In this document: piece by piece, positions 6,301 to 23,810 of the stretch
Layout: each line of letters starts with the position of its first letter
Numbering within the stretch: position 1 is the first letter of the stretch
Assembly (NCBI GenBank): GCA_019186825.1
Contig: JABARP010000007.1
Coordinates: 15,813 to 79,812 of the forward strand
DNA from: Pyrinomonadaceae bacterium
GTDB lineage: Bacteria; Acidobacteriota; Blastocatellia; Pyrinomonadales; Pyrinomonadaceae
Length of the DNA: 64,000 bases
Direction: 5' to 3'
The notes under the pieces: model-generated
Seen by the model: the letters and a program-made list of their open reading frames with translations, nothing else
Told to the model about the DNA's origin: nothing
Databases searched by the model: none
Translations under genes and position numbers: made by a program

Positions 6301-6692
6301 AAGGAAACCAGGTTTACCTCGACCCGTTCACGCTGCCGTTCGGCGGCAACGCCCTGGCGGTTGTCAATATCGAGGCTCGCATCCCACTTTCTAAGTCGGT
6401 ACGTGCGGTTCCTTTCTACGACGGCGGCAACGTTTTCAGACGTGTCGGCGATATTTTTAATCCACCGAAGACGATCGGCTCGACCGCGTTCGAGGCGAAT
6501 TTGCGTGCCCTTTGGACGAATACTGTCGGCCTCGGGCTTCGGTTAAAAACGCCGATCGGCGGCGAGTTCGGGATCGATTACGGCTATCTGCTGAATCCGC
6601 CGCGATTCCGCATTCCGCAAACGGTCGGCCCCGACGCCTACTACCGTCTGCGTCAGGGCCATATCCATTTCAGATTTTCACAAGCCTTTTAG
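3393..6692 (+). CDS. bamA: Omp85-family outer membrane protein assembly factor (BamA/TamA-like) with multiple POTRA domains
   Basis: 1099-aa ORF with an N-terminal signal-like segment (LPRIVAAVVLIACVFAAAAVAQS). It has repeated POTRA-like units (e.g. VDAVTISGNTAIPTDELEKQL, IDRVLITGNQKTKEHAIRRAI). The C-terminal beta-barrel carries the RGF motif (FFAGGSTTLRGFDFEEAGP) and ends in the aromatic residue F (HFRFSQAF). The TTG start at 3393 is uncertain. Confidence 0.8.
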   Translation: MRRSHIANKYLLPRIVAAVVLIACVFAAAAVAQSSEFEGKTIGEVKIVVDPPYSNGAEDEVAPLVKGMSGKPYNTVRVHDNILQIYNNRPVVSVEVAAALRGDLVDLEFRVKRKAVLNKVLIEVTEPKGNGSKITEQELLFKLNILSSGTPITEQILRNNADIMLDYLREQGYYKAEVAFDEQKVAGIDEVNVVFHVTLNEQAVVNTFSINIEGLTTPIDQRKLSLEPGEGFTRDRLRNDVEEVRSILREGDLIAPRLYEPRVVYDPEANKVDIELTGSKGPKVKIVIDPETDKPSSRTLNKILPVKREGTLDFAAIVEGERRLENYYQEHGYFFVDVTPVCSVEPEIVEGDGTKLPNGTEFVCSSLATNELLGRDIEVKYNVALSRKLRLRSIRIRGTDKLTYEDVSTVLNSQEANVLGIIPLFGYGRGVTSADTLEQDASTIRSLMNELGYRDATVSVLQGVSPNSDDLIITFQVDEGPPTVVDAVTISGNTAIPTDELEKQLPELKGRNYSRARVRNAVRALQTYYADKGYYDARITSSIVEPKTPASTDVENVQVEFQIEREGRPVVIDRVLITGNQKTKEHAIRRAIALEPGKLLKTSDIYSSEQNLFGTDAFDSVNVKLQRAGRNTDGSRSTDVIINVSEAPPRVLKYGGGFSTDLGVNGFVDIRHVNLFGRLWQGGARLRMSRRQQLVQLDFIHPRFLHDREGRFSPLTITAQYQRDSTVTRFFRSAFDKGTFGIVQRLDENGDPIDEFGNATGSPTLHRLTFTVETNKTLSVKNRSLIFARFKFEDVRLMNFESLLVRELLRPDSRIRTSGFSFTYVRDTRQNCQIQYSLLETIAKGEPGDRCRYNASDPTNGSYITAQYDLSAPLLGANIGFQKFQASYNFYYSVPKIRRMTLAARAIIGLAHVFANGNRFSNSQFPGLDGILPISERFFAGGSTTLRGFDFEEAGPRAVVVPQGTFRDSEGNQVYLDPFTLPFGGNALAVVNIEARIPLSKSVRAVPFYDGGNVFRRVGDIFNPPKTIGSTAFEANLRALWTNTVGLGLRLKTPIGGEFGIDYGYLLNPPRFRIPQTVGPDAYYRLRQGHIHFRFSQAF

Positions 6693-8668
6693 TTGACCGA
6701 ATCGATAAGAACCGCCGATTCGTCCAGCTCGAGGATCAAACCGCCGGGAGCGGCCACGGGGAGTTTTGCGAGTGCCGAGCGGAGGTGGTCGAATTCAGGA
6801 GCCTTCGTGTCGCGCATCAGCTCAAGATTCTTCCTGTCGCTCTTTCTACGGTACATTGCGCGATCGGCTGCGACGACGAGCTGATCGAGCGATTCGCCCT
6901 TTTGCGGATACGCCGCGGCCCCGACGCTTACGCCGACCGAGGCATACCGTTCGCTCCCCTTTACCTCAAGGCGAAATTCACGCACGGCATTCTCGATACG
7001 CTCAGAGACCTCTGCGACCTCGCCGTCCGTCATCTCAGGAACGATGGCAATGAATTCGTCGCCTCCGTATCGAGCAAGGAAGTCGTATTCTCGAAGCTGC
7101 GAAAGGATGACCTCGCCGATCTCGCGCAGCATTTGATCGCCGACCTTGTGCCCGAAGCTGTCGTTCACACCCTTGAAGCCATCGAGGTCGAGCATTATCA
7201 GCTGGAAGGTCGAATTGCCGCGATCGGCGCGTGCCACCTCGCGTTCGAACTGCATCTGCAGGCTTCGCGCATTCGGAAGGCCCGTCATCGGATCTGTCAT
7301 CGCGTGTGCACGCGTGCGGGCATGTGCCTGCAGCTTTTCGATCGCACGGGCTGCGATGTTGGCGACCGTCGTCAGCACGCGTATGTGTTCATCCTCATAC
7401 GCATCGATCGCCGACGTGTAGATCGAAAGCGCTCCGACCGGGCCGCCGTCGGAAACAAGCGGCAGGCTCGCCATCGTTCGATACTCCTGGATCAGGTCAA
7501 GCTGCGAAAGCGAGAAATCGAGGTCAGGATTCACGTTGACGACCGGTTCGAGATTCTTGAGCACAAAGCCGGTCGCGCCTTCGCCGGGACGTATTCGTTT
7601 TGAGAGGAATACGTCGGCGTTCTGGCCGGTGACTTCTGCTGCTGAGGCGTACTCGCGGCTCTCGTTCAGCAAGAAAACCGCACAAGTGTCCGTTGGTACA
7701 AGCTGACTGACCTTCTTTGCGAAGAGTTTGAGCATTGCGCCGAGGCTGTCCGATTCGCCGAATTCGCGGACGAGTTCGAACAGGGCGAAAACCTCGCGGT
7801 TTGCCGACTGTATGCGTTCGACGTACGTCTTGCCTTCGATCGTCTTCTGATGTGTGATCTCCTCTTTCGGATAGTCCACGCCGGCAGCTGCGATCTCGAC
7901 CTCGAATTTCGTGAGGTTCTTCAAGAAAATGTGAACGGCCTCAGGATCGAACCGCGTGCCCGCTGCATTCGCGATATGCTGGCGTGCCTCTTCGCGTGAC
8001 ATCGGCTTGCGGTAAGGCCTTTCGCTGCGAAGTGCATCATAGGTATCGGCGATCGCGAGAATGCGTGCCCCAAGCGGGATGCGGTTGCCCTTCAGGCCGC
8101 TCGGATACCCGGCTCCATCCCACGATTCATGGTGATAGCGAACGATCGGAACAACAGGATATGGAAAGTCGATCTCTTCAAGGATCGAAGCGCCGATCGT
8201 GCAGTGTGTTTTTGCCTTTTCGAGTTCGGCAGGCGTCAGCTGGTCCGGCTTGCTGAGAATGTGATCCGGAACGGCAAGCTTTCCGATGTCGTGCAGGAGA
8301 GAACCGAGCCGAAGGGCGTCGAGCCGGTCACCCGTCAAGCCCATCGCGCGTCCAAGCCCAAGCGCATAGATCTGCGTGCGCCGTACGTGGCCCGTGCCGA
8401 TCTGGTCGCGTGCGTCGATCGCCGTTGCCAGGACCTCGACCGTCGTCTGATTCAGCTGGTTCGCCTGCTCGATCAGCTCGTTTCGTTTTTGCTGACCCGT
8501 ACTGTGGATCTTATATGCGGCGGCGACACAGGCGGCGACAGGGAACAATATCAATAGGAACGTTGCCCCGAATACGAGCAGGCCCGCAGCGATCGCCACA
8601 AAGGCAATTACACCGCAGGCAGTAAGGCTCAGCATCGAGCCCTTGTATCGTTTCTCAACGTCTTTCAT
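6689..8668 (-). CDS. Membrane-anchored HD-GYP / GAF / GGDEF hybrid c-di-GMP enzyme
   Basis: ATG at 8668 followed by two N-terminal hydrophobic helices. HD-GYP motifs are present (HDIGKLAVPDHIL, HHESWDGAGYPSGL). A central GAF-like region follows. The C-terminal GGDEF domain has an intact active site and I-site (REYDFLARYGGDEFIAIV). Confidence 0.85.
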   Translation of the reverse strand: MKDVEKRYKGSMLSLTACGVIAFVAIAAGLLVFGATFLLILFPVAACVAAAYKIHSTGQQKRNELIEQANQLNQTTVEVLATAIDARDQIGTGHVRRTQIYALGLGRAMGLTGDRLDALRLGSLLHDIGKLAVPDHILSKPDQLTPAELEKAKTHCTIGASILEEIDFPYPVVPIVRYHHESWDGAGYPSGLKGNRIPLGARILAIADTYDALRSERPYRKPMSREEARQHIANAAGTRFDPEAVHIFLKNLTKFEVEIAAAGVDYPKEEITHQKTIEGKTYVERIQSANREVFALFELVREFGESDSLGAMLKLFAKKVSQLVPTDTCAVFLLNESREYASAAEVTGQNADVFLSKRIRPGEGATGFVLKNLEPVVNVNPDLDFSLSQLDLIQEYRTMASLPLVSDGGPVGALSIYTSAIDAYEDEHIRVLTTVANIAARAIEKLQAHARTRAHAMTDPMTGLPNARSLQMQFEREVARADRGNSTFQLIMLDLDGFKGVNDSFGHKVGDQMLREIGEVILSQLREYDFLARYGGDEFIAIVPEMTDGEVAEVSERIENAVREFRLEVKGSERYASVGVSVGAAAYPQKGESLDQLVVAADRAMYRRKSDRKNLELMRDTKAPEFDHLRSALAKLPVAAPGGLILELDESAVLIDSVN

Positions 8669-10300: not shown

Positions 10301-11515
10301 ATGGACGAAAAAATCGGCTTGATCGTACAGATTTCAGGGGTAGCTCTCATTGCCCTCTTGACGCTGTTTCTGCGTCGCAGCCTAAAGATAGTTGCTCTCA
10401 GCTATTGGGCCAATGCCTGGTGTATTTTGTGTTTTGGACTGATCTGTCTTCGCATTGCGGCCGGTGAATCGTCCTTAGTCCAGCTCCTCGGCCTTTATTT
10501 CGTTACTCAGTACCTCTTCGGGTTCCTGCTCGCCGCTGGCTGTTATAGTCTTGCAAGGAACGAGAGGATGCGGTCTCACTTTGAGTTCGCGATCATTCCG
10601 TTCATCATCTTTGGCTTCATTCTTCCATTTCTCTCGGACGACCTGTCGTTGCTCCTCAACATTCACTCGCTCGTGATGGCGGTCTTTTTCGCGGGTTCGT
10701 ATGCGATCCTTTGGCGGACGCATGTCCGGACGCTTGGCTGGCACGTGATGCTGGTCGCGATCGGGCTGCTGACGGTGAACTGTCTTCAATACTTTGTCGT
10801 CTCGCTTGTCGGCGCAAGGCCGTCATTTGCGATCGATCTTGTCCCGTCCGGGCCGCTCTTTGACTTCATTCTCCAGAACCTGCTCGGCTTCGGCACGGTG
10901 ATCATCCTTCTTGAACGCGTCCTCTCGGATGCAAATAAGGCGAACGCGGAACTCACCGTCGCCCACGCTCAGCTAAAGGAACTCGTTCACGTCGATCCGC
11001 TTACTGCAGCCCTTAACCGGCACGCATTCCACGGATACCTGCGGCAGAAAGGCGAGGATGAAGGCAGCGTCCACGGCTGCGTAGGTTTCTTTGACGTTGA
11101 CGATCTTAAGGACATCAATGACGCATACGGCCATCCTGTGGGCGATGCGGCGATCCGTGCACTCGTGCGTGCAATTCGCGACATCATTCGTGCGGAAGAC
11201 CTGATCTTCCGCTGGGGCGGCGACGAATTCTTCGTCCTGATGATCGGCCTCGATTGCGAACTCGCAAGCCAGCGAATGTCCCGCCTCGACGGCCTTCTTA
11301 CTGACGTTTCGCTGGACGGCTTGCGGCATCCGATCACGATCGGCGTGTCCCGTGCCTTTGAGAATTTCGAAGATCTCGAGCGTCTCGAGAATGCGATCGA
11401 GCGGGCCGACGCAAAAATGTATCTTGAGAAAGAGCGTCGTAAAAGCATACCGCGGCTTCGTGGTTCTCAACCGGCGATCTCATCCGGCGTGTCGCGAAGC
11501 GGCGTCGCCCTATAG
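10301..11515 (+). CDS. Multi-pass membrane diguanylate cyclase (GGDEF)
   Basis: The N-terminal ~200 aa consist of consecutive hydrophobic helices. The C-terminal GGDEF domain has an I-site and active site (IRAEDLIFRWGGDEFFVLM) and DPLTAALNRHAF. Confidence 0.85.
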   Translation: MDEKIGLIVQISGVALIALLTLFLRRSLKIVALSYWANAWCILCFGLICLRIAAGESSLVQLLGLYFVTQYLFGFLLAAGCYSLARNERMRSHFEFAIIPFIIFGFILPFLSDDLSLLLNIHSLVMAVFFAGSYAILWRTHVRTLGWHVMLVAIGLLTVNCLQYFVVSLVGARPSFAIDLVPSGPLFDFILQNLLGFGTVIILLERVLSDANKANAELTVAHAQLKELVHVDPLTAALNRHAFHGYLRQKGEDEGSVHGCVGFFDVDDLKDINDAYGHPVGDAAIRALVRAIRDIIRAEDLIFRWGGDEFFVLMIGLDCELASQRMSRLDGLLTDVSLDGLRHPITIGVSRAFENFEDLERLENAIERADAKMYLEKERRKSIPRLRGSQPAISSGVSRSGVAL

Positions 11516-14774: not shown

Positions 14775-17309
14775 CTAGTTCACATACGCACTTGGGGCCG
14801 GTGTGTCGCCTGCAAGGCCGAAGGGTACGACCGAGAACCCTGCACTCGTGCCGAGTATGTAGAACAGTCCTTGTGCATCGGGTCTATAGACCGCGAGGTC
14901 TGCCTTGCCGTCGCCATCGTAATCACCTGCTGCAGGGATGTCCGTCGCGATGCCGAACGGTGCACCGTATGCCGTATCGTTCTCGCTTCTGAGGATGTAC
15001 CAGAAGCCTGTCGATGGTCGATACACCGCAAGGTCCGTCTTGCCGTCGCCTGTGTAGTCGGCAGGGACGATCTTGTCGCCTGCGGCTCCGAACTGTGCGG
15101 CCCAGAACGCTCCGTTCGCCGAATTGAACCTGTACCAGACGCCCGTCGAAGGACGATATACGGCAATATCTGCCTTACCGTCGCCATCGAAGTCCGCTGT
15201 GGTCGGCCTGTCGCCTGCAAGCCCGAACTGTACGGCCGTAAAGCCCTGTGTAGAACGCTGTATGTAGAACGTCCCCTGTGCGTCAGGACGATATACCGCC
15301 ATGTCAGCCTTCCCGTCACCGTCGAAATCACCGGGCGTCGGGATATCCGTCGATATGCCGAACGGTGCGACGGTGAGCGTCAGATCTTCGCTACGGAGTA
15401 TGTACCACGTTCCCGTGCTCGGCCGATACATCGCGACATCCGTCTTACCGTCACCCGTAAAGTCAGCCGGCACCATCTTGTCGCCTGCCGCACCGAACTG
15501 ATACGCTGTGAACCCTGCCGTCGAACGCTGCAGATACCAGACACTATTCGATGGCCGATACACGCTCACATCCGTCTTCCCGTCCCCGTCAAAATCGAAC
15601 ATCGCGGCACCGGTCGGTGTGGATGATGTGCCGATCGTGAAATTCGCTGATGACGTTCCCGCGGGATCGATAAATCCGGCCTCACGAACGCGAATGCGTG
15701 CCGACGAGGTCGGAATGTTCGGTACGGTCCAGCTTCGCGAACCGGAGTTCGCAACGTCGTTCGCGATCACCGTCGGGAATGTCGTCCCACCGTCGGTGGA
15801 AAGTTCGATGGTCACGTTCCGGTCGAATCCGGAAGTATTCGTCCACGTGATATTGACGTTCGAGCCGATCGCGACCGAACCGCTAGCGGGCGAGACATTC
15901 GTGATCGTATCACGTACATTGTCGTTGTTGCTGTCGCGATACCAGCCGATGTCACGCATTACGTGCCTCGTGAGATCGAGCGTGAGAGGAAGCCCGACAG
16001 TGATATTCGGTTCCATCAGCAGGTTCGGGCTGCACGCCGTGTTAAAGTGGGAGATCGATGATCCGCCCTGAAACGTCGAAGGCGTATAGAGCTGAACGCG
16101 TCCGCTTGCATCGTCGCATGCAGTAAGAAAACTAGATGCGATGCGTACGTTCGGGCCGTCGAAGACGACGTTGTTATTGTTCGTCGCCGAAGCGCGGCGT
16201 TCGAGATCGGTCATTTCCGACCAGCGCTTTCCGGTCGTCGTGTCGAACATAAATCTCAGATACGCGTCCGGAAAGCCCGACGGCATCTCACCCGTCGAAC
16301 CATTCACAAAACTCTGAAAACCGAGCCCGTGGCCCATTTCGTGAAGGAGCACGACGAGCAGATTGATGCGGTTCGCGGGAGTCGAATTATTGAGTCCGTA
16401 GTAAAACCGCGATCCCGAACCAAGACAGCCGTTATCGACGTCCGAATTGAACTGAGCGTTTATCTCAGGGTTCGACAAATTGAGCGGAGTGCCGGCGAGT
16501 TTATTCGCGAGAGCGACGGAATACCATGTGCCCGGAACGGGTGCCGATGCGAAATCGCGCAGGCGGCTCGTCGCTCCTGCAGAACCAAGCACACCGCCGC
16601 TCGGTGAGCACGGCGAGAGAGAGTTGAATTGCGAATTCACCTCGATCGGTACGGTCGTGTCGAGGAATGCGCCCCAGATACTTGCCGCAAAATTGAAGAG
16701 ATTCAATCGTTGCTGTCCGCGGGTCGTTCCGTCGTTGCCGCCCTCAGGCGCGGCTGCCGTCGGGTCGTTGAAACCTTCGCCGGCACCATCACCATTCACG
16801 ATCGTGATCGTGGCAGAATTCGGCTGCAATGCACGACGCTGGGCGGCCTCGGCTATCAAATTCTTGTAAAAGATCAGTTCCGCCGGAGACATTCCATGGC
16901 GGGCCGCTTCGTTCGCGACCTCGGTCCTATCCGGATAGTGCGACTGGATCTTTGCACCGGTGAAGAGATCGCGGCCTAGGAAGTTCTCTGCCTCGCCAAG
17001 ATCCGAAACGCAAGCGGCGACCGGTTCGCCATCCGAGCCGAGTCGAGCGAGCAGAACGTTCTGAAACGTCATCCCCATATCGACCTCGACACCGCCGTCC
17101 GGCAATGTTCGTTTGATACTTCGCGAGTCGGTTCGGTCCGTGAGGTCACTGATCAGGCGGCCGAGCTCACGATCACCGTCCTGCGGCCCGGGGCGGGTCT
17201 GCGATGAGTTCACCTGTGCGCTTGCCAGCGACCACCTGCCGGTCCCGACAAGAACAAGTGCTCCAAGAATAAGTGCCAATGCTGCAGTGGAAAGAATTAC
17301 TTTTTTCAT
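14775..17309 (-). CDS. Secreted HExxH zinc metallopeptidase-like protein with six C-terminal FG-GAP/VCBS-type repeats
   Basis: The ORF runs to 17453, but the ATG at 17309 gives a clean signal peptide (MKKVILSTAALALILGALVLVG...ASAQ). The zinc motif is LLHEMGHGLGF. Six tandem ~45-aa repeats of the form D[FY][DT]GDGK[TA]D..VYRP...[WF]Y...FG..D.P occupy the C-terminus. Confidence 0.75.
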   Translation of the reverse strand: MKKVILSTAALALILGALVLVGTGRWSLASAQVNSSQTRPGPQDGDRELGRLISDLTDRTDSRSIKRTLPDGGVEVDMGMTFQNVLLARLGSDGEPVAACVSDLGEAENFLGRDLFTGAKIQSHYPDRTEVANEAARHGMSPAELIFYKNLIAEAAQRRALQPNSATITIVNGDGAGEGFNDPTAAAPEGGNDGTTRGQQRLNLFNFAASIWGAFLDTTVPIEVNSQFNSLSPCSPSGGVLGSAGATSRLRDFASAPVPGTWYSVALANKLAGTPLNLSNPEINAQFNSDVDNGCLGSGSRFYYGLNNSTPANRINLLVVLLHEMGHGLGFQSFVNGSTGEMPSGFPDAYLRFMFDTTTGKRWSEMTDLERRASATNNNNVVFDGPNVRIASSFLTACDDASGRVQLYTPSTFQGGSSISHFNTACSPNLLMEPNITVGLPLTLDLTRHVMRDIGWYRDSNNDNVRDTITNVSPASGSVAIGSNVNITWTNTSGFDRNVTIELSTDGGTTFPTVIANDVANSGSRSWTVPNIPTSSARIRVREAGFIDPAGTSSANFTIGTSSTPTGAAMFDFDGDGKTDVSVYRPSNSVWYLQRSTAGFTAYQFGAAGDKMVPADFTGDGKTDVAMYRPSTGTWYILRSEDLTLTVAPFGISTDIPTPGDFDGDGKADMAVYRPDAQGTFYIQRSTQGFTAVQFGLAGDRPTTADFDGDGKADIAVYRPSTGVWYRFNSANGAFWAAQFGAAGDKIVPADYTGDGKTDLAVYRPSTGFWYILRSENDTAYGAPFGIATDIPAAGDYDGDGKADLAVYRPDAQGLFYILGTSAGFSVVPFGLAGDTPAPSAYVN
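14778..15600 (-). repeat. Coding tandem repeats (six ~135-bp FG-GAP-like units)
   Basis: DFDGDGKTDVSVYRP, DFTGDGKTDVAMYRP, DFDGDGKADMAVYRP, DFDGDGKADIAVYRP, DYTGDGKTDLAVYRP and DYDGDGKADLAVYRP recur in register. This repeat structure also produces the long spurious antisense ORF 14733..15626. Confidence 0.85.
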
Positions 17310-17493
17310 TATTGATACAACCTGATGACGTGGGCGTCGTGCGAAGGCTCGCGGAAAATTCATTTTCTCACAGCGAAGAAGTTTTGCAAACAAAATTCTT
17401 CCGTCTTCGCGTCGGCTCGAAATGGAGAGCATCGTAATACGCAATAGTTGCACAGATCACGTCCATCTTGCCTCATGTCATCCTGCTTCAATT

Positions 17494-17521: not shown

Positions 17522-17681
17522 AATTTTAGTCTCACATTTCGTTCGATAGTTCGCTAACCCGTGTGATGCCAACAAATACACAGTGGCACGTTCTTTGATT
17601 AAAGAAAGGACAGCAAGAGGTGCGCATTGCGTTCGCACCCTCCGAGCCGGTAGATCCACCCCGGACAAGGAAGTGAATTTT

Positions 17682-20249
17682 ATGAAGTCAACATCATGGG
17701 TGAAAGCGATGCGGAAGACACTTGCAATAGTGTTCACTGCGTCCTTTCTTTTTTCGAACACGATCGTGTTCGGAATAGGCGGTGCGGGGCCTGACCGCAA
17801 CGCTAAGTCGGACGCGGTTGTCGCGAAATATACCACCGACCTTACGCAGCTTGGCCGTGAAGGAAGACTGCGTCAGGACCTAAGCCTCGAGAGCGAAGCA
17901 ATTCGTCTCACGAACGCGTTAGCTGAAGGGGGTCTTCGCCAACCGGTTCTAGTTACTGAACTGCGGGAAACACGAAACACAATTGTTGAGCAGCTTGCGA
18001 TCCGGATCGCGAACGGTGACGTGCCTGAGGGTATTGCCGGCCGCGATCTTGTCAGGCTGGATGTGGATTCTGTTTACTCCAACTCCGCAAGCAGTAATGA
18101 TTTTGAGGCTTTGGTCCTATCCATTTTGGATGACGCAGTCTCCGATCACGGCAAAAAGATATTGTTCATCGACGACCTCGGTTTCGTTCTTCAGCACAAG
18201 AACGCTGCCGAGAGGATCTTAAGTTGTGTCGCTGAAGGAAAGATCGCGGTGATCGGAGGCAGCTCTGCTCCCGATTACCGCGATCGTATCGAGGCGGACG
18301 GCCGTTTCTCAAAAGCATTTACCGCATTTGAGATCAAGGACCTCCGTTCGGCTTCTTCAGATGATGCAGCATCGGCACCGGCCGAATCGTATCGCGGCGG
18401 CACCCTTTCACCGGACCTACGCGACATGATCGCTTCGGACCCGAGTGGAAAGACCCGCGTCGATGTGATCGTCCAGGCCCGTAATGCTGACAATCCGGCT
18501 CTCCGGCAGCTGATCGCTTCGGGCGAAGCTCGGATCACGGATCGTATCGGCTCGACCGATACGTTGGTCGTCAATATGCCGCTTTCGACCGTACAGACTT
18601 TGTCGCAAAGCGGCTTGGCGAACTACATTTCGCCCGATCGCCCGACAACTACGACCGGCCATATCGAAGATACGACCGGCATCTCGCTTATGCGAAGCCA
18701 GCCCGCTCTCAATGGCCGCAGTGCTTATACGCTCGACGGCACGGGCATCGGTATCGCAGTGCTCGATTCGGGCATCTACGCCGCCCACAATGGCTTCAAG
18801 AACAATTCCGGCGCGTCGCGCATCGTTGCGAACGTTAACTTTACGAACTCGAATATCAACGATACGAGCGACGGATACGGCCATGGAACGCACGTTGCCG
18901 GCCTTGCTGCCGGTAATTCGAGTGTTTCTGGCGGTGCGTACCGCGGCGTTGCACCGAATGCGAATATCATCAGCGTTAAGGTCTTGAACAATAGCGGCCA
19001 GGGACAGCAGTCGTGGCTCCTTAACGGCCTGAACTGGGTTCTGAACAATCGCACGGCCTACAACATCCGCGTCGTGAACTTGAGCTTAGGCGCAACAGCG
19101 ATCGATACGTACACGAACGATCCGGTTTGCCTGAAAGTGAAAGAGCTTGCAGCGGCCGGCATCGTCGTCATAGCGGCAGCAGGCAATCTTGGGAAAGATT
19201 CGCTCGGGAACAAGCGATACGGCCAGATCCACTCGCCGGGCAACAGCCCGTATGTGATCACGGTCGGTGCAAGCAACACGATGGGAACCACCGCCCACGG
19301 CGATGACACTATCGCGAGCTTCAGCTCACGCGGCCCGACGCGAAGTTTCTATACCACATCGAACGGCAGTCGCGTTTTCGACAACATCATCAAGCCGGAC
19401 CTCGTTGCTCCGGGAAATAAGGTGATCTCGCAGAAATCACCCTCGAACCTGATGTCGGTCGAGAATACGGCTTTGAATCTCGATGGCACGAATGGCGCCG
19501 ATTCGATGATGTATATGAGCGGCACCTCGATGTCGTCACCGATCGTGGCGGGTGCAGCAGCACTTCTGCTTCAGGTCAATCCGAACCTTACACCGCAGAT
19601 GGTGAAGATGCTGCTTCAGTACACGGCACAGCCCATCGCCGGCGTGAACACCTTCGAACAAGGCGCCGGTCAGTTGAACCTTGAAGGCGCTGTCCGACTG
19701 GCAAGGTCACTTCGCACCGACGTTGACTTCAAAACGGTCGGAATGGGAGCGATGTCCGTGGCCTACAATTGGACGATGCCGACAACTTCGACGACCGTCG
19801 GCGGAAGCACCTTCCAGTGGGCGCAGCTGGTAACCGGTAAGTACACGATGATCACGGGCTCGAAGCTCATCTCCGAGTTCCAGGCAGTCTATCGCCTTAA
19901 TAAGACGATCGGCGATGGCGTCAATTTCGGCAACGGAGCCTTCTCGCTTGATACCGGTTCGTATTTCACAACCGGCCTGTCGGTAAACCGTAACGTCAAT
20001 ACGAGCAACGGTGCTCCGCTCGGAGCCGGGTCGTTGTATCTGACATACGGCGTCCTTGTAGGCGACGGTGTCATTGTTGGTGACGGAGTGATCGTCGGCG
20101 ACGGTGTGCTTGTTAGCGACGGTGTTCTTGTTGGGGACGGCGTACTGGTCGGAGACGGTGTCCTGATCGGCGACGGTGTACTCATTGGCGATGGCGTTCT
20201 CGTTGGAGACAGTGCTTTGCAAGGCGATAATACGCCGGCGATGCAGTAG
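17682..20249 (+). CDS. Secreted S8 subtilisin-family serine peptidase with an N-terminal degenerate Clp/Hsp100 NBD1-like module and a C-terminal hexapeptide-repeat tail
   Basis: The ATG at 17682 follows an AAGGAAG element and gives a signal peptide ([31 protein letters not shown]). The region from 17826 to about 18345 encodes [15 protein letters not shown]...[31 protein letters not shown]...[11 protein letters not shown], which is colinear with Clp NBD1 but lacks Walker A. An I9-like propeptide follows. The S8 triad motifs are VLDSGI, HGTHVAG and SGTSMSSP. Confidence 0.85.
   Translation: [855 protein letters not shown]
20049..20222 (+). repeat. 18-bp coding tandem repeat: eight [GS]DGV[LI][VI] hexapeptides plus degenerate flanking copies
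   Basis: [54 protein letters not shown], preceded by GVLV. The DNA copies differ at many third-codon positions (ggc/ggt/ggg/gga; gtc/gtg/gtt/gta) while the peptide stays constant. Confidence 0.9.
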
Positions 20250-20260
20250 AGGGGGCAAAG

Positions 20261-21163
20261 ATGTTGAATACAGCAACAAATATGTCGTACCAAGCTGCAC
20301 CGTTCGAAGCACCGTTCTTTAGGAGAACTGCGTCGGTTCCGGCGTTTCGCCTGACCTGCTCTGATGAGGCCGAGGTGTTGAGATTCCTTGCGATCAACCC
20401 GGTTCAGACGGTAGTGATGTCCAGCTACATTGCGGACAACGGCATCGAGAGCGAGTTGAATCGCGGCACCTTTTACGGTCACCGTGCTTCCGACGGCAGT
20501 CTCGACGGCGTCGCACTCATCGGCCATAGCACTCTTGTCGAGGCTCGGTCGGACGAAGCGATGACGGCTTTGGCAGTCGCAGCGAAAGAGACGGATGTTC
20601 CTGTCCATCTCATTATGTCGAACGGCGATGACGCTGAGTCATTCTTCGATCAAATGACGGATGGGATGAGCAAACCGCGCCTCCGATGTGTCGAAGAGCG
20701 TTTCGAGGCTGCATTCCCGTTTGCCGTTCAGTCGTGCGAGTACGCGGTTGGAAACGCCGATATGGGCCAGCTCGAAGCCGTTGCAAAGGCACAGGCCGAG
20801 ATCGCGTTCATCGAGTGCGGCGTCGATCCAATGCTTCGCGACCGCGAAGGATTCTTAAAGCGTGTCGCACGCCGCATCGATCAGAACCGTGTGTTCTCGG
20901 TCGTCGAAGACGGCAAGCTGCTCTTTAAGGCCGACATCATCGCCGAGACGGACGAAACGATCTACCTCGAAGGCATCTACGTCGATCCCGATTCCCGCGG
21001 AAAGGGAATCGGTCCGAGATGTCTTGCGGCCCTGACAGCACAGCTCTTGTCCCGCGTCCCAAATGTCTGCCTGCTCAGCAACGTTGATTTCCTCAACGCT
21101 CACAAGAGCTTTCAGAAGGCAGGATATCGGCGAACCGGTCAATGCGTAACGCTGTTTGTCTAG
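20261..21163 (+). CDS. GNAT-family N-acetyltransferase with an N-terminal accessory domain
   Basis: GAGGGGG Shine-Dalgarno-like element upstream. The gene starts 12 nt after the S8 stop. The C-terminal acetyl-CoA binding motif is GIYVDPDSRGKGIGPRCLAAL. Confidence 0.7.
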   Translation: MLNTATNMSYQAAPFEAPFFRRTASVPAFRLTCSDEAEVLRFLAINPVQTVVMSSYIADNGIESELNRGTFYGHRASDGSLDGVALIGHSTLVEARSDEAMTALAVAAKETDVPVHLIMSNGDDAESFFDQMTDGMSKPRLRCVEERFEAAFPFAVQSCEYAVGNADMGQLEAVAKAQAEIAFIECGVDPMLRDREGFLKRVARRIDQNRVFSVVEDGKLLFKADIIAETDETIYLEGIYVDPDSRGKGIGPRCLAALTAQLLSRVPNVCLLSNVDFLNAHKSFQKAGYRRTGQCVTLFV

Positions 21164-21287
21164 AGCACATGGCCTGTTGGAGGCGGGCCGAGCCTGCCTC
21201 CAACAACGCTTCCGTTATCGGATCTCTCCCACACCTCAACCAATATTGATGGCCTTTTCTTCACCTCCCCGGAGGCCGGAAATATAT

Positions 21288-23810
21288 ATGCAAGGACGAT
21301 CCTTGCCAAAAGAAATGGAACGTCAAAGAATAGTCAGATCAATGGAGATCACGCTCTGGGTCCTCGGACTCGCGGCTGTCGTTTGGGCAGTTTACGGATT
21401 TCCATACTCGAAGATCGATGTCCCGATGACAGCGTTCTTCTTCCTCACAATAGCTATCGGCCCGCGCGTGACGATCCAGATCCCGCGATTCAAATCCTAT
21501 ATCTCGGCCTCTGAAACGTTCATCTTCCTCGCCTTGCTTATTTACGGTGGTGAGGCCGCGCTATTGCTCGCCGCTGCGGAAGCATTTTCGACCTCGTGGG
21601 CATTTTGTAAGAAGAAGCGAACGGTATTCGTCAATGCGGCGACGATCGCGTTCTCGACAGCGTGCGCGATCGCTGTGCTGAAGGTTGCCGGCGTGTATGA
21701 GCACTTCCACAGCTACAACATTCGGCCGCAGGCGTTTCTGATGGCGCTTCTGCTCCTTGCCCTCACGCAATTTTTGGTAAATACGTCGATCGCCTCGACC
21801 TATGCCGCTCTTCGTGACGGGACGCCGATCTTCGAGACGTGGCAAAAGAAGTATATCTGGGCATGTCTGACCTATGTTGTCGGTGCGGCCGCCGCCGGGA
21901 CTCTTGTGCAGCTTGCAGACACGATCGGTATCGGCATCGTTCTCATTGCATTCCCCGTCTGTTTCTTCGTGTTCTATTCGTATCGGATGTACCTGCAAAA
22001 CGTCGAGATCTCGATGGAAAAGGCCGACGAGGCAGGGAAATATGCGCAACTTCTCGAATCGCAATCGAATATGCTCCGCGAGTCCGAAGAGCGTTTCCGA
22101 AGCGCGTTCAACTACGCTCCGATCGGGATCGGGCTCGTTTCAGGTTCGGGCGAGTGGCTTAAGACGAACTTTGCGATGAGCGAGATCCTTGGCTATTCGG
22201 AGGATGAATTTCGGCGTTTGAACTTCCAGGAAGTCATTATGCGTGAGGATCTTGGGGCTACGCTCGTGAAGGTGCATGAGATCTTGGCCGGCCGAGCGGC
22301 AACGGCGTCAATGGAGCAGCGATATCGCCATAAGGAAGGCTATACGGTCTGGACCTCTTGGAGCGTATCTGCGGTACCGAGCGCAAATGGATCCATGCCC
22401 GATCTGATCTTTCAGCTGCAGGACATCACGGATAAGAAGCTCGCTGAGGCACGGCTTCGCCACGAAGCGACGCACGATGCTCTTACGGGCCTTGCCAACC
22501 GGTCCCATTTTATGACCAGGCTCGACTCCGCTCTCACCAAGGTCCACGCCGGGCAGAGCAAGGTCAGCATTCTTTTTATCGACCTTGACCGCTTCAAGGT
22601 GGTGAATGACAGCCTTGGCCATCTCGTCGGTGATGAGCTCCTGAAGGGCATTGCTTCGCGTCTGCGCGAATGTATGAGACCTTCGGATCTGGTCGCGCGT
22701 CTTGGCGGTGATGAGTTCACGATCCTTGTTGAGGGACGTTACGACGACCAGGAAGTTACGAGGATCGCCGAGCGTATTCAAGAGAAATTCAGCAAGCCGT
22801 TCGACCTCTTCGGCCACGACGTGTACAGTTCTGCGAGCATCGGCATCCTTCACGCATCGCCACAGCATGCCACGCCCGAGGACATTATGCGTGATGCGGA
22901 TACTGCGATGTATCAGGCAAAACGCGCAGGAAAGGCACGGCATGAGGTATTCGACGAGGGAATGCACATGGCCGCAAAAGAGACGCTGCAGCTTGAGACC
23001 GATCTTCGTCGGGCTATCGAGCAGAACGAGCTTTCGATGGTCTATCAGCCGATCTTTCGACTTGCCACCAAAGAGCTTGAGGGTGTCGAAGCACTGGTTC
23101 GATGGGAGCATCCGACACTAGGCTTTGTCCCGCCGACAAAATTTGTCCAGCTTGCAGAGGAGATCGGCCTGATCGACAAACTCTGTGAGCAGGTGATGAC
23201 CAAAGGCTGCCGAGACCTGCGCTCGCTGCACCGCGAGTTTCCCACGCTTTCGGATCTCACATTGAGCGTCAATCTTTCGTCGAAGCAGTTCGGCCAGAGT
23301 TCGATCCACAATATATGCTCGATCCTGGATGAGACGGGTTTTCCGCCGCATCTCCTCAAGCTCGAGATCACGGAATCGGTCTTCTTCGAACACACTGAGC
23401 GGGCGGTCGCGATGCTGAATACGCTTCGCGATCTTGGTATCGATATCAATGTTGATGATTTCGGGACAGGCTATTCGAACCTGAGCTACCTGACGAAACT
23501 TCCGATCTCGACGCTGAAGGTCGATCGGTCGTTCGTTTCGATGATACAAGACTCGTCCGGCAGCGAGGTCGTCCACGCGATCGTGACTTTGGCACGGAAT
23601 CTTGGCTTGCGTGTTGTTGCTGAAGGTATCGAGACCGCGGCTCAATTCGAATATCTGCGTGAACTCAGATGCGAGAGCGGCCAGGGCTATTATCTTTCAC
23701 GGCCGGTACCTTTTGATGAGCTGATCGACCTTGCTTGCGGCCAAAGAAAGCGGTTGTCTCCCGTACTGCAGCCCGCTTCTGCATTGGCTGCAACGACGGT
23801 CATTCATTGA
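21288..23810 (+). CDS. Multi-pass membrane PAS / GGDEF / EAL c-di-GMP signalling protein
   Basis: The ORF opens at 21156. The ATG at 21288 follows a GGAGG element. It has about 7 hydrophobic helices and a PAS domain (ERFRSAFNYAPIGIGLV). The GGDEF domain has an I-site (RPSDLVARLGGDEFTILV). EAL motifs are present (EALVRWEH, EITES, DDFGTGYSNLSYL, EGIET, QGYYLSRP). Confidence 0.88.
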   Translation: MQGRSLPKEMERQRIVRSMEITLWVLGLAAVVWAVYGFPYSKIDVPMTAFFFLTIAIGPRVTIQIPRFKSYISASETFIFLALLIYGGEAALLLAAAEAFSTSWAFCKKKRTVFVNAATIAFSTACAIAVLKVAGVYEHFHSYNIRPQAFLMALLLLALTQFLVNTSIASTYAALRDGTPIFETWQKKYIWACLTYVVGAAAAGTLVQLADTIGIGIVLIAFPVCFFVFYSYRMYLQNVEISMEKADEAGKYAQLLESQSNMLRESEERFRSAFNYAPIGIGLVSGSGEWLKTNFAMSEILGYSEDEFRRLNFQEVIMREDLGATLVKVHEILAGRAATASMEQRYRHKEGYTVWTSWSVSAVPSANGSMPDLIFQLQDITDKKLAEARLRHEATHDALTGLANRSHFMTRLDSALTKVHAGQSKVSILFIDLDRFKVVNDSLGHLVGDELLKGIASRLRECMRPSDLVARLGGDEFTILVEGRYDDQEVTRIAERIQEKFSKPFDLFGHDVYSSASIGILHASPQHATPEDIMRDADTAMYQAKRAGKARHEVFDEGMHMAAKETLQLETDLRRAIEQNELSMVYQPIFRLATKELEGVEALVRWEHPTLGFVPPTKFVQLAEEIGLIDKLCEQVMTKGCRDLRSLHREFPTLSDLTLSVNLSSKQFGQSSIHNICSILDETGFPPHLLKLEITESVFFEHTERAVAMLNTLRDLGIDINVDDFGTGYSNLSYLTKLPISTLKVDRSFVSMIQDSSGSEVVHAIVTLARNLGLRVVAEGIETAAQFEYLRELRCESGQGYYLSRPVPFDELIDLACGQRKRLSPVLQPASALAATTVIH

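Follow-up and report, generated by a model that had tools for sequence, protein, structure and literature searches.

What would a domain of the Clp/Hsp100 type do in front of a secreted protease? Textbooks present AAA+ domains as cytoplasmic motors driven by ATP, and the question is raised by a gene on the + strand of a 64,000-nucleotide stretch of DNA from a soil bacterium of the family Pyrinomonadaceae (assembly GCA_019186825.1, contig JABARP010000007.1, positions 15,813 to 79,812; this whole stretch is called the window, and its first letter is position 1), the product of which comprises, in this order, a signal peptide, an ATPase-dead first nucleotide-binding domain (NBD1) of the ClpB type, a linker, an I9-like propeptide, an S8 subtilase domain, a β-rich domain and hexapeptide repeats. 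The initial annotation, made from the letters alone, had proposed a secreted subtilase carrying an inactivated Clp NBD1-like module, and had left its role between substrate docking, inhibition and intramolecular chaperoning. The answer favoured here, to which about an even chance is given, is that the protein is an exported protease zymogen in which the ClpB-derived module forms a non-enzymatic part of the cleavable pro-region, and that an RNA structure embedded in the codons of the module probably modulates translation.

The homology of the module to ClpB is visible solely with full-length Clp models, pairwise searches of the PDB and structure comparison. Residues 44-215 match the NCBIfam ClpB model TIGR03346 (E 1.2e-19) at ClpB positions 153-330, the ClpV, ClpA, ClpK and ClpG models of NCBIfam giving weaker matches; in a pairwise sequence search of the PDB the first hit is E. 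coli ClpB NBD1 (1jbk, E 1e-20), colinear with residues 47-215 (169 residues, about 31% identity), followed by ClpB, Hsp104, ClpC and ClpA entries. An AlphaFold2 (AF2) model of residues 32-240, computed from an alignment that held 80 family members and no true Clp sequences, has a predicted local distance difference test score (pLDDT) of 90.8 and a predicted template-modelling score (pTM) of 0.84; when it is compared with the PDB by Foldseek the best match is again 1jbk (E 4.9e-15, template-modelling scores 0.76/0.84, root-mean-square deviation 2.0 Å, 173 columns), and all of the top 50 matches are NBD1 domains of Hsp100 proteins. The homology spans exactly the large α/β subdomain of NBD1, with which the module has the signature helix and the Walker B and sensor-1 strands in common, so the colinear alignment with Clp NBD1 put forward in the initial annotation is borne out by profile, sequence and fold. 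Among the Pfam models that it had named for checking, Peptidase_S8 was recovered, and AAA, AAA_lid, Clp_N and Inhibitor_I9 (PF05922) gave no match to the protein at E ≤1; indeed, the Pfam matches in the whole protein are Peptidase_S8 and Hexapep only, while several family members match weakly to PF23569 (NBD_SMAX1).

The fold has been kept without the machinery. Motif counts were made on 104 family rows (the module of the window and 103 relatives) aligned with five genuine ClpB sequences. In the column of the Walker A lysine, K occurs in 0/104 rows (Q in 55, R in 11, A in 11, S in 8, G in 6 and L in 3; the window copy has R), and the pattern G..G.GK[ST] is found in the first 300 residues of 0/119 relatives; as no relative has an intact Walker A, inactivation is a trait of the family and not a local decay. 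The pore-loop tyrosine fares no better (Y in 0/104, the column being S, T, D or N in 104/104), the ClpB sequence KYRGEFE reading SSNDFE, with S in that column, in the window copy. Sensor-1 GATT has become GGSS (residues 191-195), the family having mostly SS, and the arginine fingers RR have become KA (RRF to KAF), with R kept in 5/104 rows at each position. The Walker B strand differs from these: the ClpB IDE is IDD in the window copy (residues 160-167), while the family counts are D66/E17/N16 at the first acidic position and E65/D18 at the second, and since most relatives keep DE, the DD of the window is a local change. All three substitutions listed in the initial annotation are thus present, and its view that the ATPase residues are gone stands for Walker A and sensor-1; for Walker B it describes the window copy and not the family. 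Relative to ClpB, the module lacks a stretch of 7 residues following Walker B; the alignment does not reach the lid subdomain, which is missing and gives way to a low-complexity linker and the I9-like unit, and the N-domain, the M-domain and NBD2 are likewise absent from the protein. Judged from the alignment, the residue classes for ATP binding, hydrolysis, substrate threading and ring assembly are all gone, and the module reads as a descendant of the Hsp100/Clp family, not as a working member of it. Deeper-branching relatives with the same architecture hold more ClpB-like remnants of Walker A (NNPVLLSEPGVARN, NNPVLVGEQGAARN), which fits a clpB fragment that was captured once and decayed afterwards.

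The Walker B acidic pair, kept in most relatives as D/E/N followed by E/D, together with the conserved β-strand core and sensor-1 strand and a conserved basic motif, GREGRLR, has to be set against these losses, as the module could still be capable of non-canonical binding of a nucleotide, another anionic ligand or a metal and act as an extracytoplasmic sensor gating the activation of the protease. This is considered quite unlikely: neither the glycine pattern of the P-loop nor its lysine is seen in any relative, of the parts that complete the nucleotide pocket of Clp proteins the arginine fingers have almost always gone and the lid is absent, and much of the conservation of GREGRLR is accounted for by the RNA pairing described below.

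Where the module acts depends on where translation starts. The gene lies in a single long open reading frame (ORF; 17583..20249, + strand), and translation from the in-frame GTG at 17583, or from an internal codon, would yield a cytoplasmic protein, the module of which might work with cellular ATPases or ClpP-like partners; the module begins at about ClpB residue 150, presumably near the internal translation start that yields the N-terminally truncated ClpB isoform of E. coli. The in-frame sequence preceding the Met of 17682 is, however, unrelated among 15 homologous loci, conservation setting in at this Met and the hydrophobic N-terminus; a Shine-Dalgarno-like site precedes ATG 17682, and public gene calls begin there, the same 855-residue product having been called on the NCBI metagenome-assembled genome (MAG) GCA_021405015.1 and on at least 25 Logan contigs. 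The 33 codons upstream being unconserved, GTG 17583 is rejected as the start; a protein begun there would besides keep the hydrophobic N-terminus as a signal or anchor, and by inspection no conserved in-frame start codon follows the Shine-Dalgarno-like GAAGGAAGA inside the gene. A cytoplasmic product is therefore regarded as extremely improbable, and the secreted protein beginning at ATG 17682, as first read, is retained. Its signal peptide has an n-region with 4 K/R and 0 acidic residues, an h-region with a mean Kyte-Doolittle hydropathy of 1.85 over 15 residues and then a small-residue motif; in a heuristic check this tripartite layout recurs in 46/46 full-length relatives (median net charge +3, hydropathy ≥1.78), and export of the 855-residue protein by the Sec pathway is predicted. 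The full-length homologs have 840-880 residues and cover 95-99% of the protein.

The protease itself appears to be intact. The match to PF00082 covers residues 353-661 (E 8.3e-51, 173.4 bits against a cut-off of 21.8), and the complete catalytic triad that had been read from the sequence is invariant, with the oxyanion asparagine, across 62 aligned sequences; the closest solved structures by sequence are those of Tk-SP from Thermococcus kodakarensis (3afg, 9ues; E 2e-41). In a full-length AF2 model, built with 61 relatives, the module and the S8 domain are confidently folded, and an I9-like unit (residues 259-318) stands directly N-terminal to the catalytic domain, with the secondary structure E259-266, H272-280, E284-288, E294-300, H301-310 and E313-318 according to DSSP, and Foldseek aligns 436-483 columns with unprocessed pro-subtilisins including their propeptides (e.g., 3afg, ProN-Tk-SP, and 3whi). 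It is the predicted fold, and not the Pfam profile, that argues for the I9-like identity claimed earlier. As in Tk-SP, pro-subtilisin E and pro-Tk-subtilisin, the propeptide directly precedes an S8 domain with a complete triad; unlike these, the present protein has an additional AAA+-derived domain of 170 residues and a linker before the propeptide, and a β-rich domain and hexapeptide repeats at the C-terminus. The linker is disordered in the model (pLDDT <50 at residues 222-238) and is the fastest-evolving segment, with a proportion of nonsynonymous differences (pN) of 0.12-0.48 versus 0.01-0.11 for I9 and S8 in the same pairs.

The I9-type propeptide of characterised subtilases is cleaved and degraded, and the position of the module, N-terminal to I9, favours a role in the pro-region over that of a docking domain of the mature enzyme. 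According to the mechanism proposed, export by Sec would put the module where ATP is absent, as a passive, non-enzymatic scaffold; joined to I9 by the disordered linker, it would leave with the pro-region when the junction between I9 and S8 autoprocesses; until then it may enlarge, stabilise or tether the inhibitory pro-piece and so set the duration of zymogen latency during and after export, or, as an extension of the pro-region, aid solubility during export. If, on the other hand, processing took place elsewhere or the I9-like domain were not removed, the module would be kept in the mature enzyme as an exosite docking substrates or surfaces. Large subtilases commonly carry accessory binding domains, the module is stable and well folded (pLDDT 91) and under purifying selection, and the failure of the Pfam I9 model to see the propeptide-like domain means that classical processing is not guaranteed. 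This alternative is nevertheless judged unlikely, as parts N-terminal to an I9-type propeptide would leave with it once cleaved, the sister enzymes do without the module, and the pore loop by which ClpB contacts its substrates is unconserved.

The sister proteases just mentioned (about 650 residues; for example P0213 and P0186, named 'S8 family peptidase [Pyrinomonadaceae]') consist of a signal peptide of the same type, I9, S8 and repeats, with 45-49% identity from I9 through S8 and the β-rich domain to the repeats; neither the ClpB-derived module nor the embedded RNA occurs in them, and their existence indicates that the module was inserted into a pre-existing pro-enzyme. When one genome was scanned for each GTDB species, with a loci search from a 6-sequence alignment, at least 132 species-level genomes proved to have the module; of these, the 80 listed are without exception MAGs of Acidobacteriota, under the labels Pyrinomonadaceae, Pyrinomonadales, Blastocatellia or 'Chloracidobacterium sp.' In 78/80 listed loci the module is followed by S8, the remaining two being cut by contig ends, and about 90 protein clusters have module, I9 and S8 in identical order and position. 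Each refuting condition named in the initial annotation was examined, and none was found to apply. In an exhaustive profile search the members of this family rank first, and at about E 1e-17 the matches pass gradually to genuine Clp proteins. Apparently stand-alone module proteins (280-414 residues) were rejected as a separate family, since they prove to continue into S8 sequence with a frameshift or to stop at the end of a contig; where the DNA was examined (P0008, locus L056), I9- and S8-coding sequence continues downstream on the same strand. Assembly artefacts aside, no version with a frameshift or truncation has become fixed. The module diverges more quickly than S8 (about 40% versus about 70% identity); outside the RNA region its ratio of nonsynonymous to synonymous divergence (dN/dS) is about 0.2, similar to I9 and S8, and its fold is under purifying selection across this clade of Acidobacteriota. 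Some genomes have two paralogous module-S8 genes, sometimes in tandem: L050 has two module copies about 4.8 kb apart, in L142 the RNA block occurs twice, at a distance of 4.2 kb, and two loci each come from the genomes of L015/L043, L070/L076 and L032/L086.

The synonymous sites of the module tell of a second constraint. In close orthologs the synonymous divergence (dS) of the module is 0.19-0.54 versus 1.1-2.0 for S8, the depression peaking at residues 40-100, and across 79 species-level loci the third codon positions are near-invariant over a three-way-junction RNA formed by a closing stem and two hairpins. The near-fixed codons, those of the conserved peptide motif and of the stretch that runs on to RQP, include non-preferred ones (GGC 99%, CGT 91 and 92%, GAA 97%, AGA 80%, ACC ACC, GGT GGT, CTA and TTA); at comparable fourfold sites of S8 the top codon reaches 35-55%. 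The full structure was derived by combining single-sequence minimum free energy (MFE) folding, which gives the same architecture in 5/6 homologs (z-scores -1.4 to -4.8), RIBOSUM alifold and explicit counting of 42 pairs in 78 sequences, with slid pairings and 500 shuffles as controls. Paired cells make up 85.4% versus 33-45% in the slid controls, cells with a double change number 146 versus 41-73, the covariation score is 0.220 versus 0.05-0.09, and the observed values are reached by 0/500 shuffles. Several of the covarying pairs link two synonymous sites; thus, Leu57 (CTT/CTA/CTG) pairs with Gly61 (GGA/GGT/GGC) as UA in 57 sequences, AU in 7 and GC in 6, and a Leu (CTN/TTR) pairs with a Glu (GAG/GAA) as CG in 49 and UA in 19. 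On a tree of I9+S8 each side of the synonymous-site pairs has changed about 15-18 times, and 70-75/78 sequences are still paired; such recurrent compensatory changes exclude recent horizontal spread as the cause of the nucleotide conservation. As a candidate new cis-acting RNA within a coding region the element is well supported, and the most conserved peptide motif of the module, which had served as the anchor of the first alignment to Clp proteins, is conserved partly because its codons form this structure.

Several other identities of the block were looked for. Rfam 15 gives no match at E ≤1 between 17300 and 18500 on either strand, and the window holds no second copy. A conserved 21-nucleotide block has 64 metagenome matches, 54 of them in this gene family and 10 in unrelated chance contexts, and a widespread independent element is rejected, the block being essentially confined to the family. 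By inspection of the RNA block there is no slippery heptamer, no hammerhead CUGANGA core and no suitably spaced in-frame start for internal initiation, and the ORF list has no antisense ORF overlapping it. In the closest clade (the window and L008-L012) codon identity is 0.62-0.8 across the whole module (17682-18340) and about 0.45-0.55 in the rest of the gene (18400-20249), and the raised 5' value may stem from recombination affecting the 5' part of the gene or from further RNA structure, alifold predicting additional helices at 17946-18064.

It might be asked whether the RNA, in the mRNA or as DNA, is all that is retained, the protein module being a functionless relic. In favour of this, the RNA structure falls exactly on the peptide stretch that is conserved most, and the module diverges faster than S8; yet the RNA occupies codons 45-88 only, residues 90-217 show ordinary synonymous variation while keeping a hydrophobic core, a confident fold and the dN/dS given above, broken versions are not fixed, and deeper relatives keep the module without the nucleotide block. 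A pure relic is accordingly held to be very unlikely. On the preferred reading the RNA, lying about 130-260 nucleotides after the start codon and holding the Shine-Dalgarno-like GAAGGAAGA and GAAGGUGG, would be met by the ribosome while the signal peptide leaves the exit tunnel; it would probably modulate translation, for example by slowing elongation so that Sec targeting precedes folding of the module, a domain that came from the cytoplasm.

A number of points weigh against this pro-region reading with its translational RNA. The full-length AF2 model does not place the module in confident contact with I9 or S8 (pTM 0.58, disordered linker), so a physical role in inhibition is not supported structurally; the conserved Walker B acidic pair and core strands may leave room for ligand or metal binding; and a pro-region role does not account for the recruitment of a ClpB fragment in particular. 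As for the RNA, default RNAalifold found just a weak 6-pair hairpin, the deeper-branching module-bearing loci L004-L006 are without the conserved nucleotide block, and a role in pausing is conjecture, since ribosomes unwind structure in coding regions. The more ambitious proposition that both halves form one adaptation, a ClpB fragment turned into an extracytoplasmic pseudo-ATPase prodomain that confers latency on the subtilase and a co-evolved RNA that adjusts the timing of translation to Sec targeting, or regulates the gene in some other way, and so allows a fast-folding domain that originated in the cytoplasm to be exported, is a speculative one and rather improbable as a whole.

Table 1. 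Features of the module-subtilase locus, in positions of the window.
Feature	Position	Strand	Details and basis
Shine-Dalgarno-like AAGGAAG	17667..17673	+	8 nt upstream of ATG 17682; read from sequence
Pre-pro-subtilase gene	17682..20249	+	855 residues, stop codon included; ORF list
Sec-type signal peptide	17682..17774	+	Residues 1 to ~31, predicted
ATPase-dead ClpB/Hsp100 NBD1 large (α/β) subdomain	17814..18332	+	Residues 45-217; profile, PDB and AF2/Foldseek matches
Three-way-junction RNA in coding sequence (candidate)	17815..17945	+	Codons 45-88; closing stem and two hairpins
RNA hairpin H1	17840-17877	+	Inside the 17815-17945 element
RNA hairpin H2	17880-17922	+	Inside the 17815-17945 element
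Degenerate Walker A	17955..17978	+	TELRETRN (residues 92-99) for GEPGVGKT; alignment to ClpB
Former pore-loop-1 region	18078..18107	+	ClpB AGAKYRGEFE replaced; alignment
Walker B strand ILFIDDLG	18159..18182	+	DD here, DE in most relatives
Sensor-1 strand	18252..18266	+	IGGSS for IGATT; family alignment
Former arginine-finger position	18306..18320	+	FSKAF for ERRFQ
Low-complexity disordered linker	18333..18407	+	Residues 218-242; full-length AF2 model
I9-like propeptide, β-α-β-β-α-β	18408..18641	+	Residues ~243-320; AF2 fold
Subtilase S8 catalytic domain	18738..19664	+	PF00082; triad D362, H401, S616; oxyanion N502
β-rich domain	19677..19997	+	Residues 666-772; AF2 pLDDT mostly 86-95, β strands
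C-terminal (GDGVLV)n hexapeptide repeats	20049..20210	+	Residues 790-843; Pfam Hexapep
GNAT-type acetyltransferase	20261..21163	+	300 residues, without signal peptide; Pfam Acetyltransf_7, Acetyltransf_1

The loss of ATPase motifs from a Clp- or AAA-type fold has precedents, namely the LonC-type Lon-like proteases, the chloroplast FtsHi proteins and the plant SMAX1/D53 proteins; these are cytoplasmic or organellar, with ring-forming AAA modules of several subdomains and no fusion to S8, while here the large subdomain alone survives and is predicted to be exported. Torsins carry a Clp-related AAA+ fold behind a signal sequence, reside in the lumen of the eukaryotic endoplasmic reticulum and have an incomplete catalytic machinery; they still bind ATP and are activated by partners in a compartment that contains it, unlike the bacterial module, which has no P-loop at all. 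From ClpB itself the module differs not only in the want of a P-loop, pore-loop tyrosine and arginine fingers, but also in its fusion to a signal peptide and a protease zymogen. To our knowledge, few cis-acting RNAs inside bacterial coding regions are known. The initial annotation knew of no described protease with this architecture, and full-text searches of the literature on Clp- or AAA-bearing subtilases, exported pseudo-ATPases and Pyrinomonadaceae proteases found neither it nor the RNA; in a 2008 survey of architectures among the serine proteases of prokaryotes, AAA appears solely with Lon (PMC2605481). The protein is classed here as a subtilase whose pro-region module is new and exapted, the architecture being real and the mechanism proposed, and the RNA element is apparently an undescribed motif.

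If the pro-region reading is right, the locus offers a clean bacterial example, for research on pseudo-enzymes, of an AAA+ fold reused as a passive extracellular scaffold in a zymogen, and, in a pro-region of a new type, a possible control of activation, which would be relevant to the biology and the engineering of subtilases. Public names of the full proteins are 'S8 family peptidase' or 'AprX', and N-terminal fragments are called 'AAA family ATPase', 'ClpA', 'ClpB' or 'VasG'; the ATPase-type names are misleading, as the domain is without ATPase motifs and belongs to a protease predicted to be exported. HEX8649924.1 and HMF56842.1 are among the mislabelled N-terminal fragments, 'type VI secretion protein VasG' being one of the names found in JGI.

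C-terminal to the catalytic domain, the β-rich domain is conserved in relatives, and the hexapeptide repeats, nine or so GDGVLV units kept both in the family and in the module-less sisters, match Hexapep with E 5e-7 (29.6 bits; cut-off 27) and have an AF2 pLDDT of about 30; a left-handed β-helix, or a role in oligomerisation or anchoring, is possible.

The gene for a GNAT-type acetyltransferase begins 12 nucleotides past the stop codon of the protease gene, with no terminator-like site between the two. A GNAT homolog follows the S8 gene in 58/68 loci with room for one, and also in distant loci with otherwise different neighbours; the 10 loci without it may be second copies of the module-S8 gene. 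It also follows one module-less sister S8 and is absent after another; GNAT is therefore rejected as a specific partner of the module, and the pairing belongs to the clade of proteases. On the other side, a divergent gene (14775-17453, - strand) encodes a large exported protein in which many FG-GAP/VCBS repeats accompany an HExxH metalloprotease-like region (NF038122 family, E 2.5e-13); the syntenic locus L004 has no such gene between mdh and S8, and in the window it looks like an insertion. Three genes of cyclic di-GMP (c-di-GMP) signalling lie within 12 kb of the protease gene, encoding HD-GYP/GAF/GGDEF (6689-8668, - strand), GGDEF (10301-11515, + strand) and PAS-GGDEF-EAL (21156-23810, + strand) proteins; a PAS-GGDEF-EAL gene likewise lies downstream of the protease gene in L004 and of the gene for the sister protease in L007.

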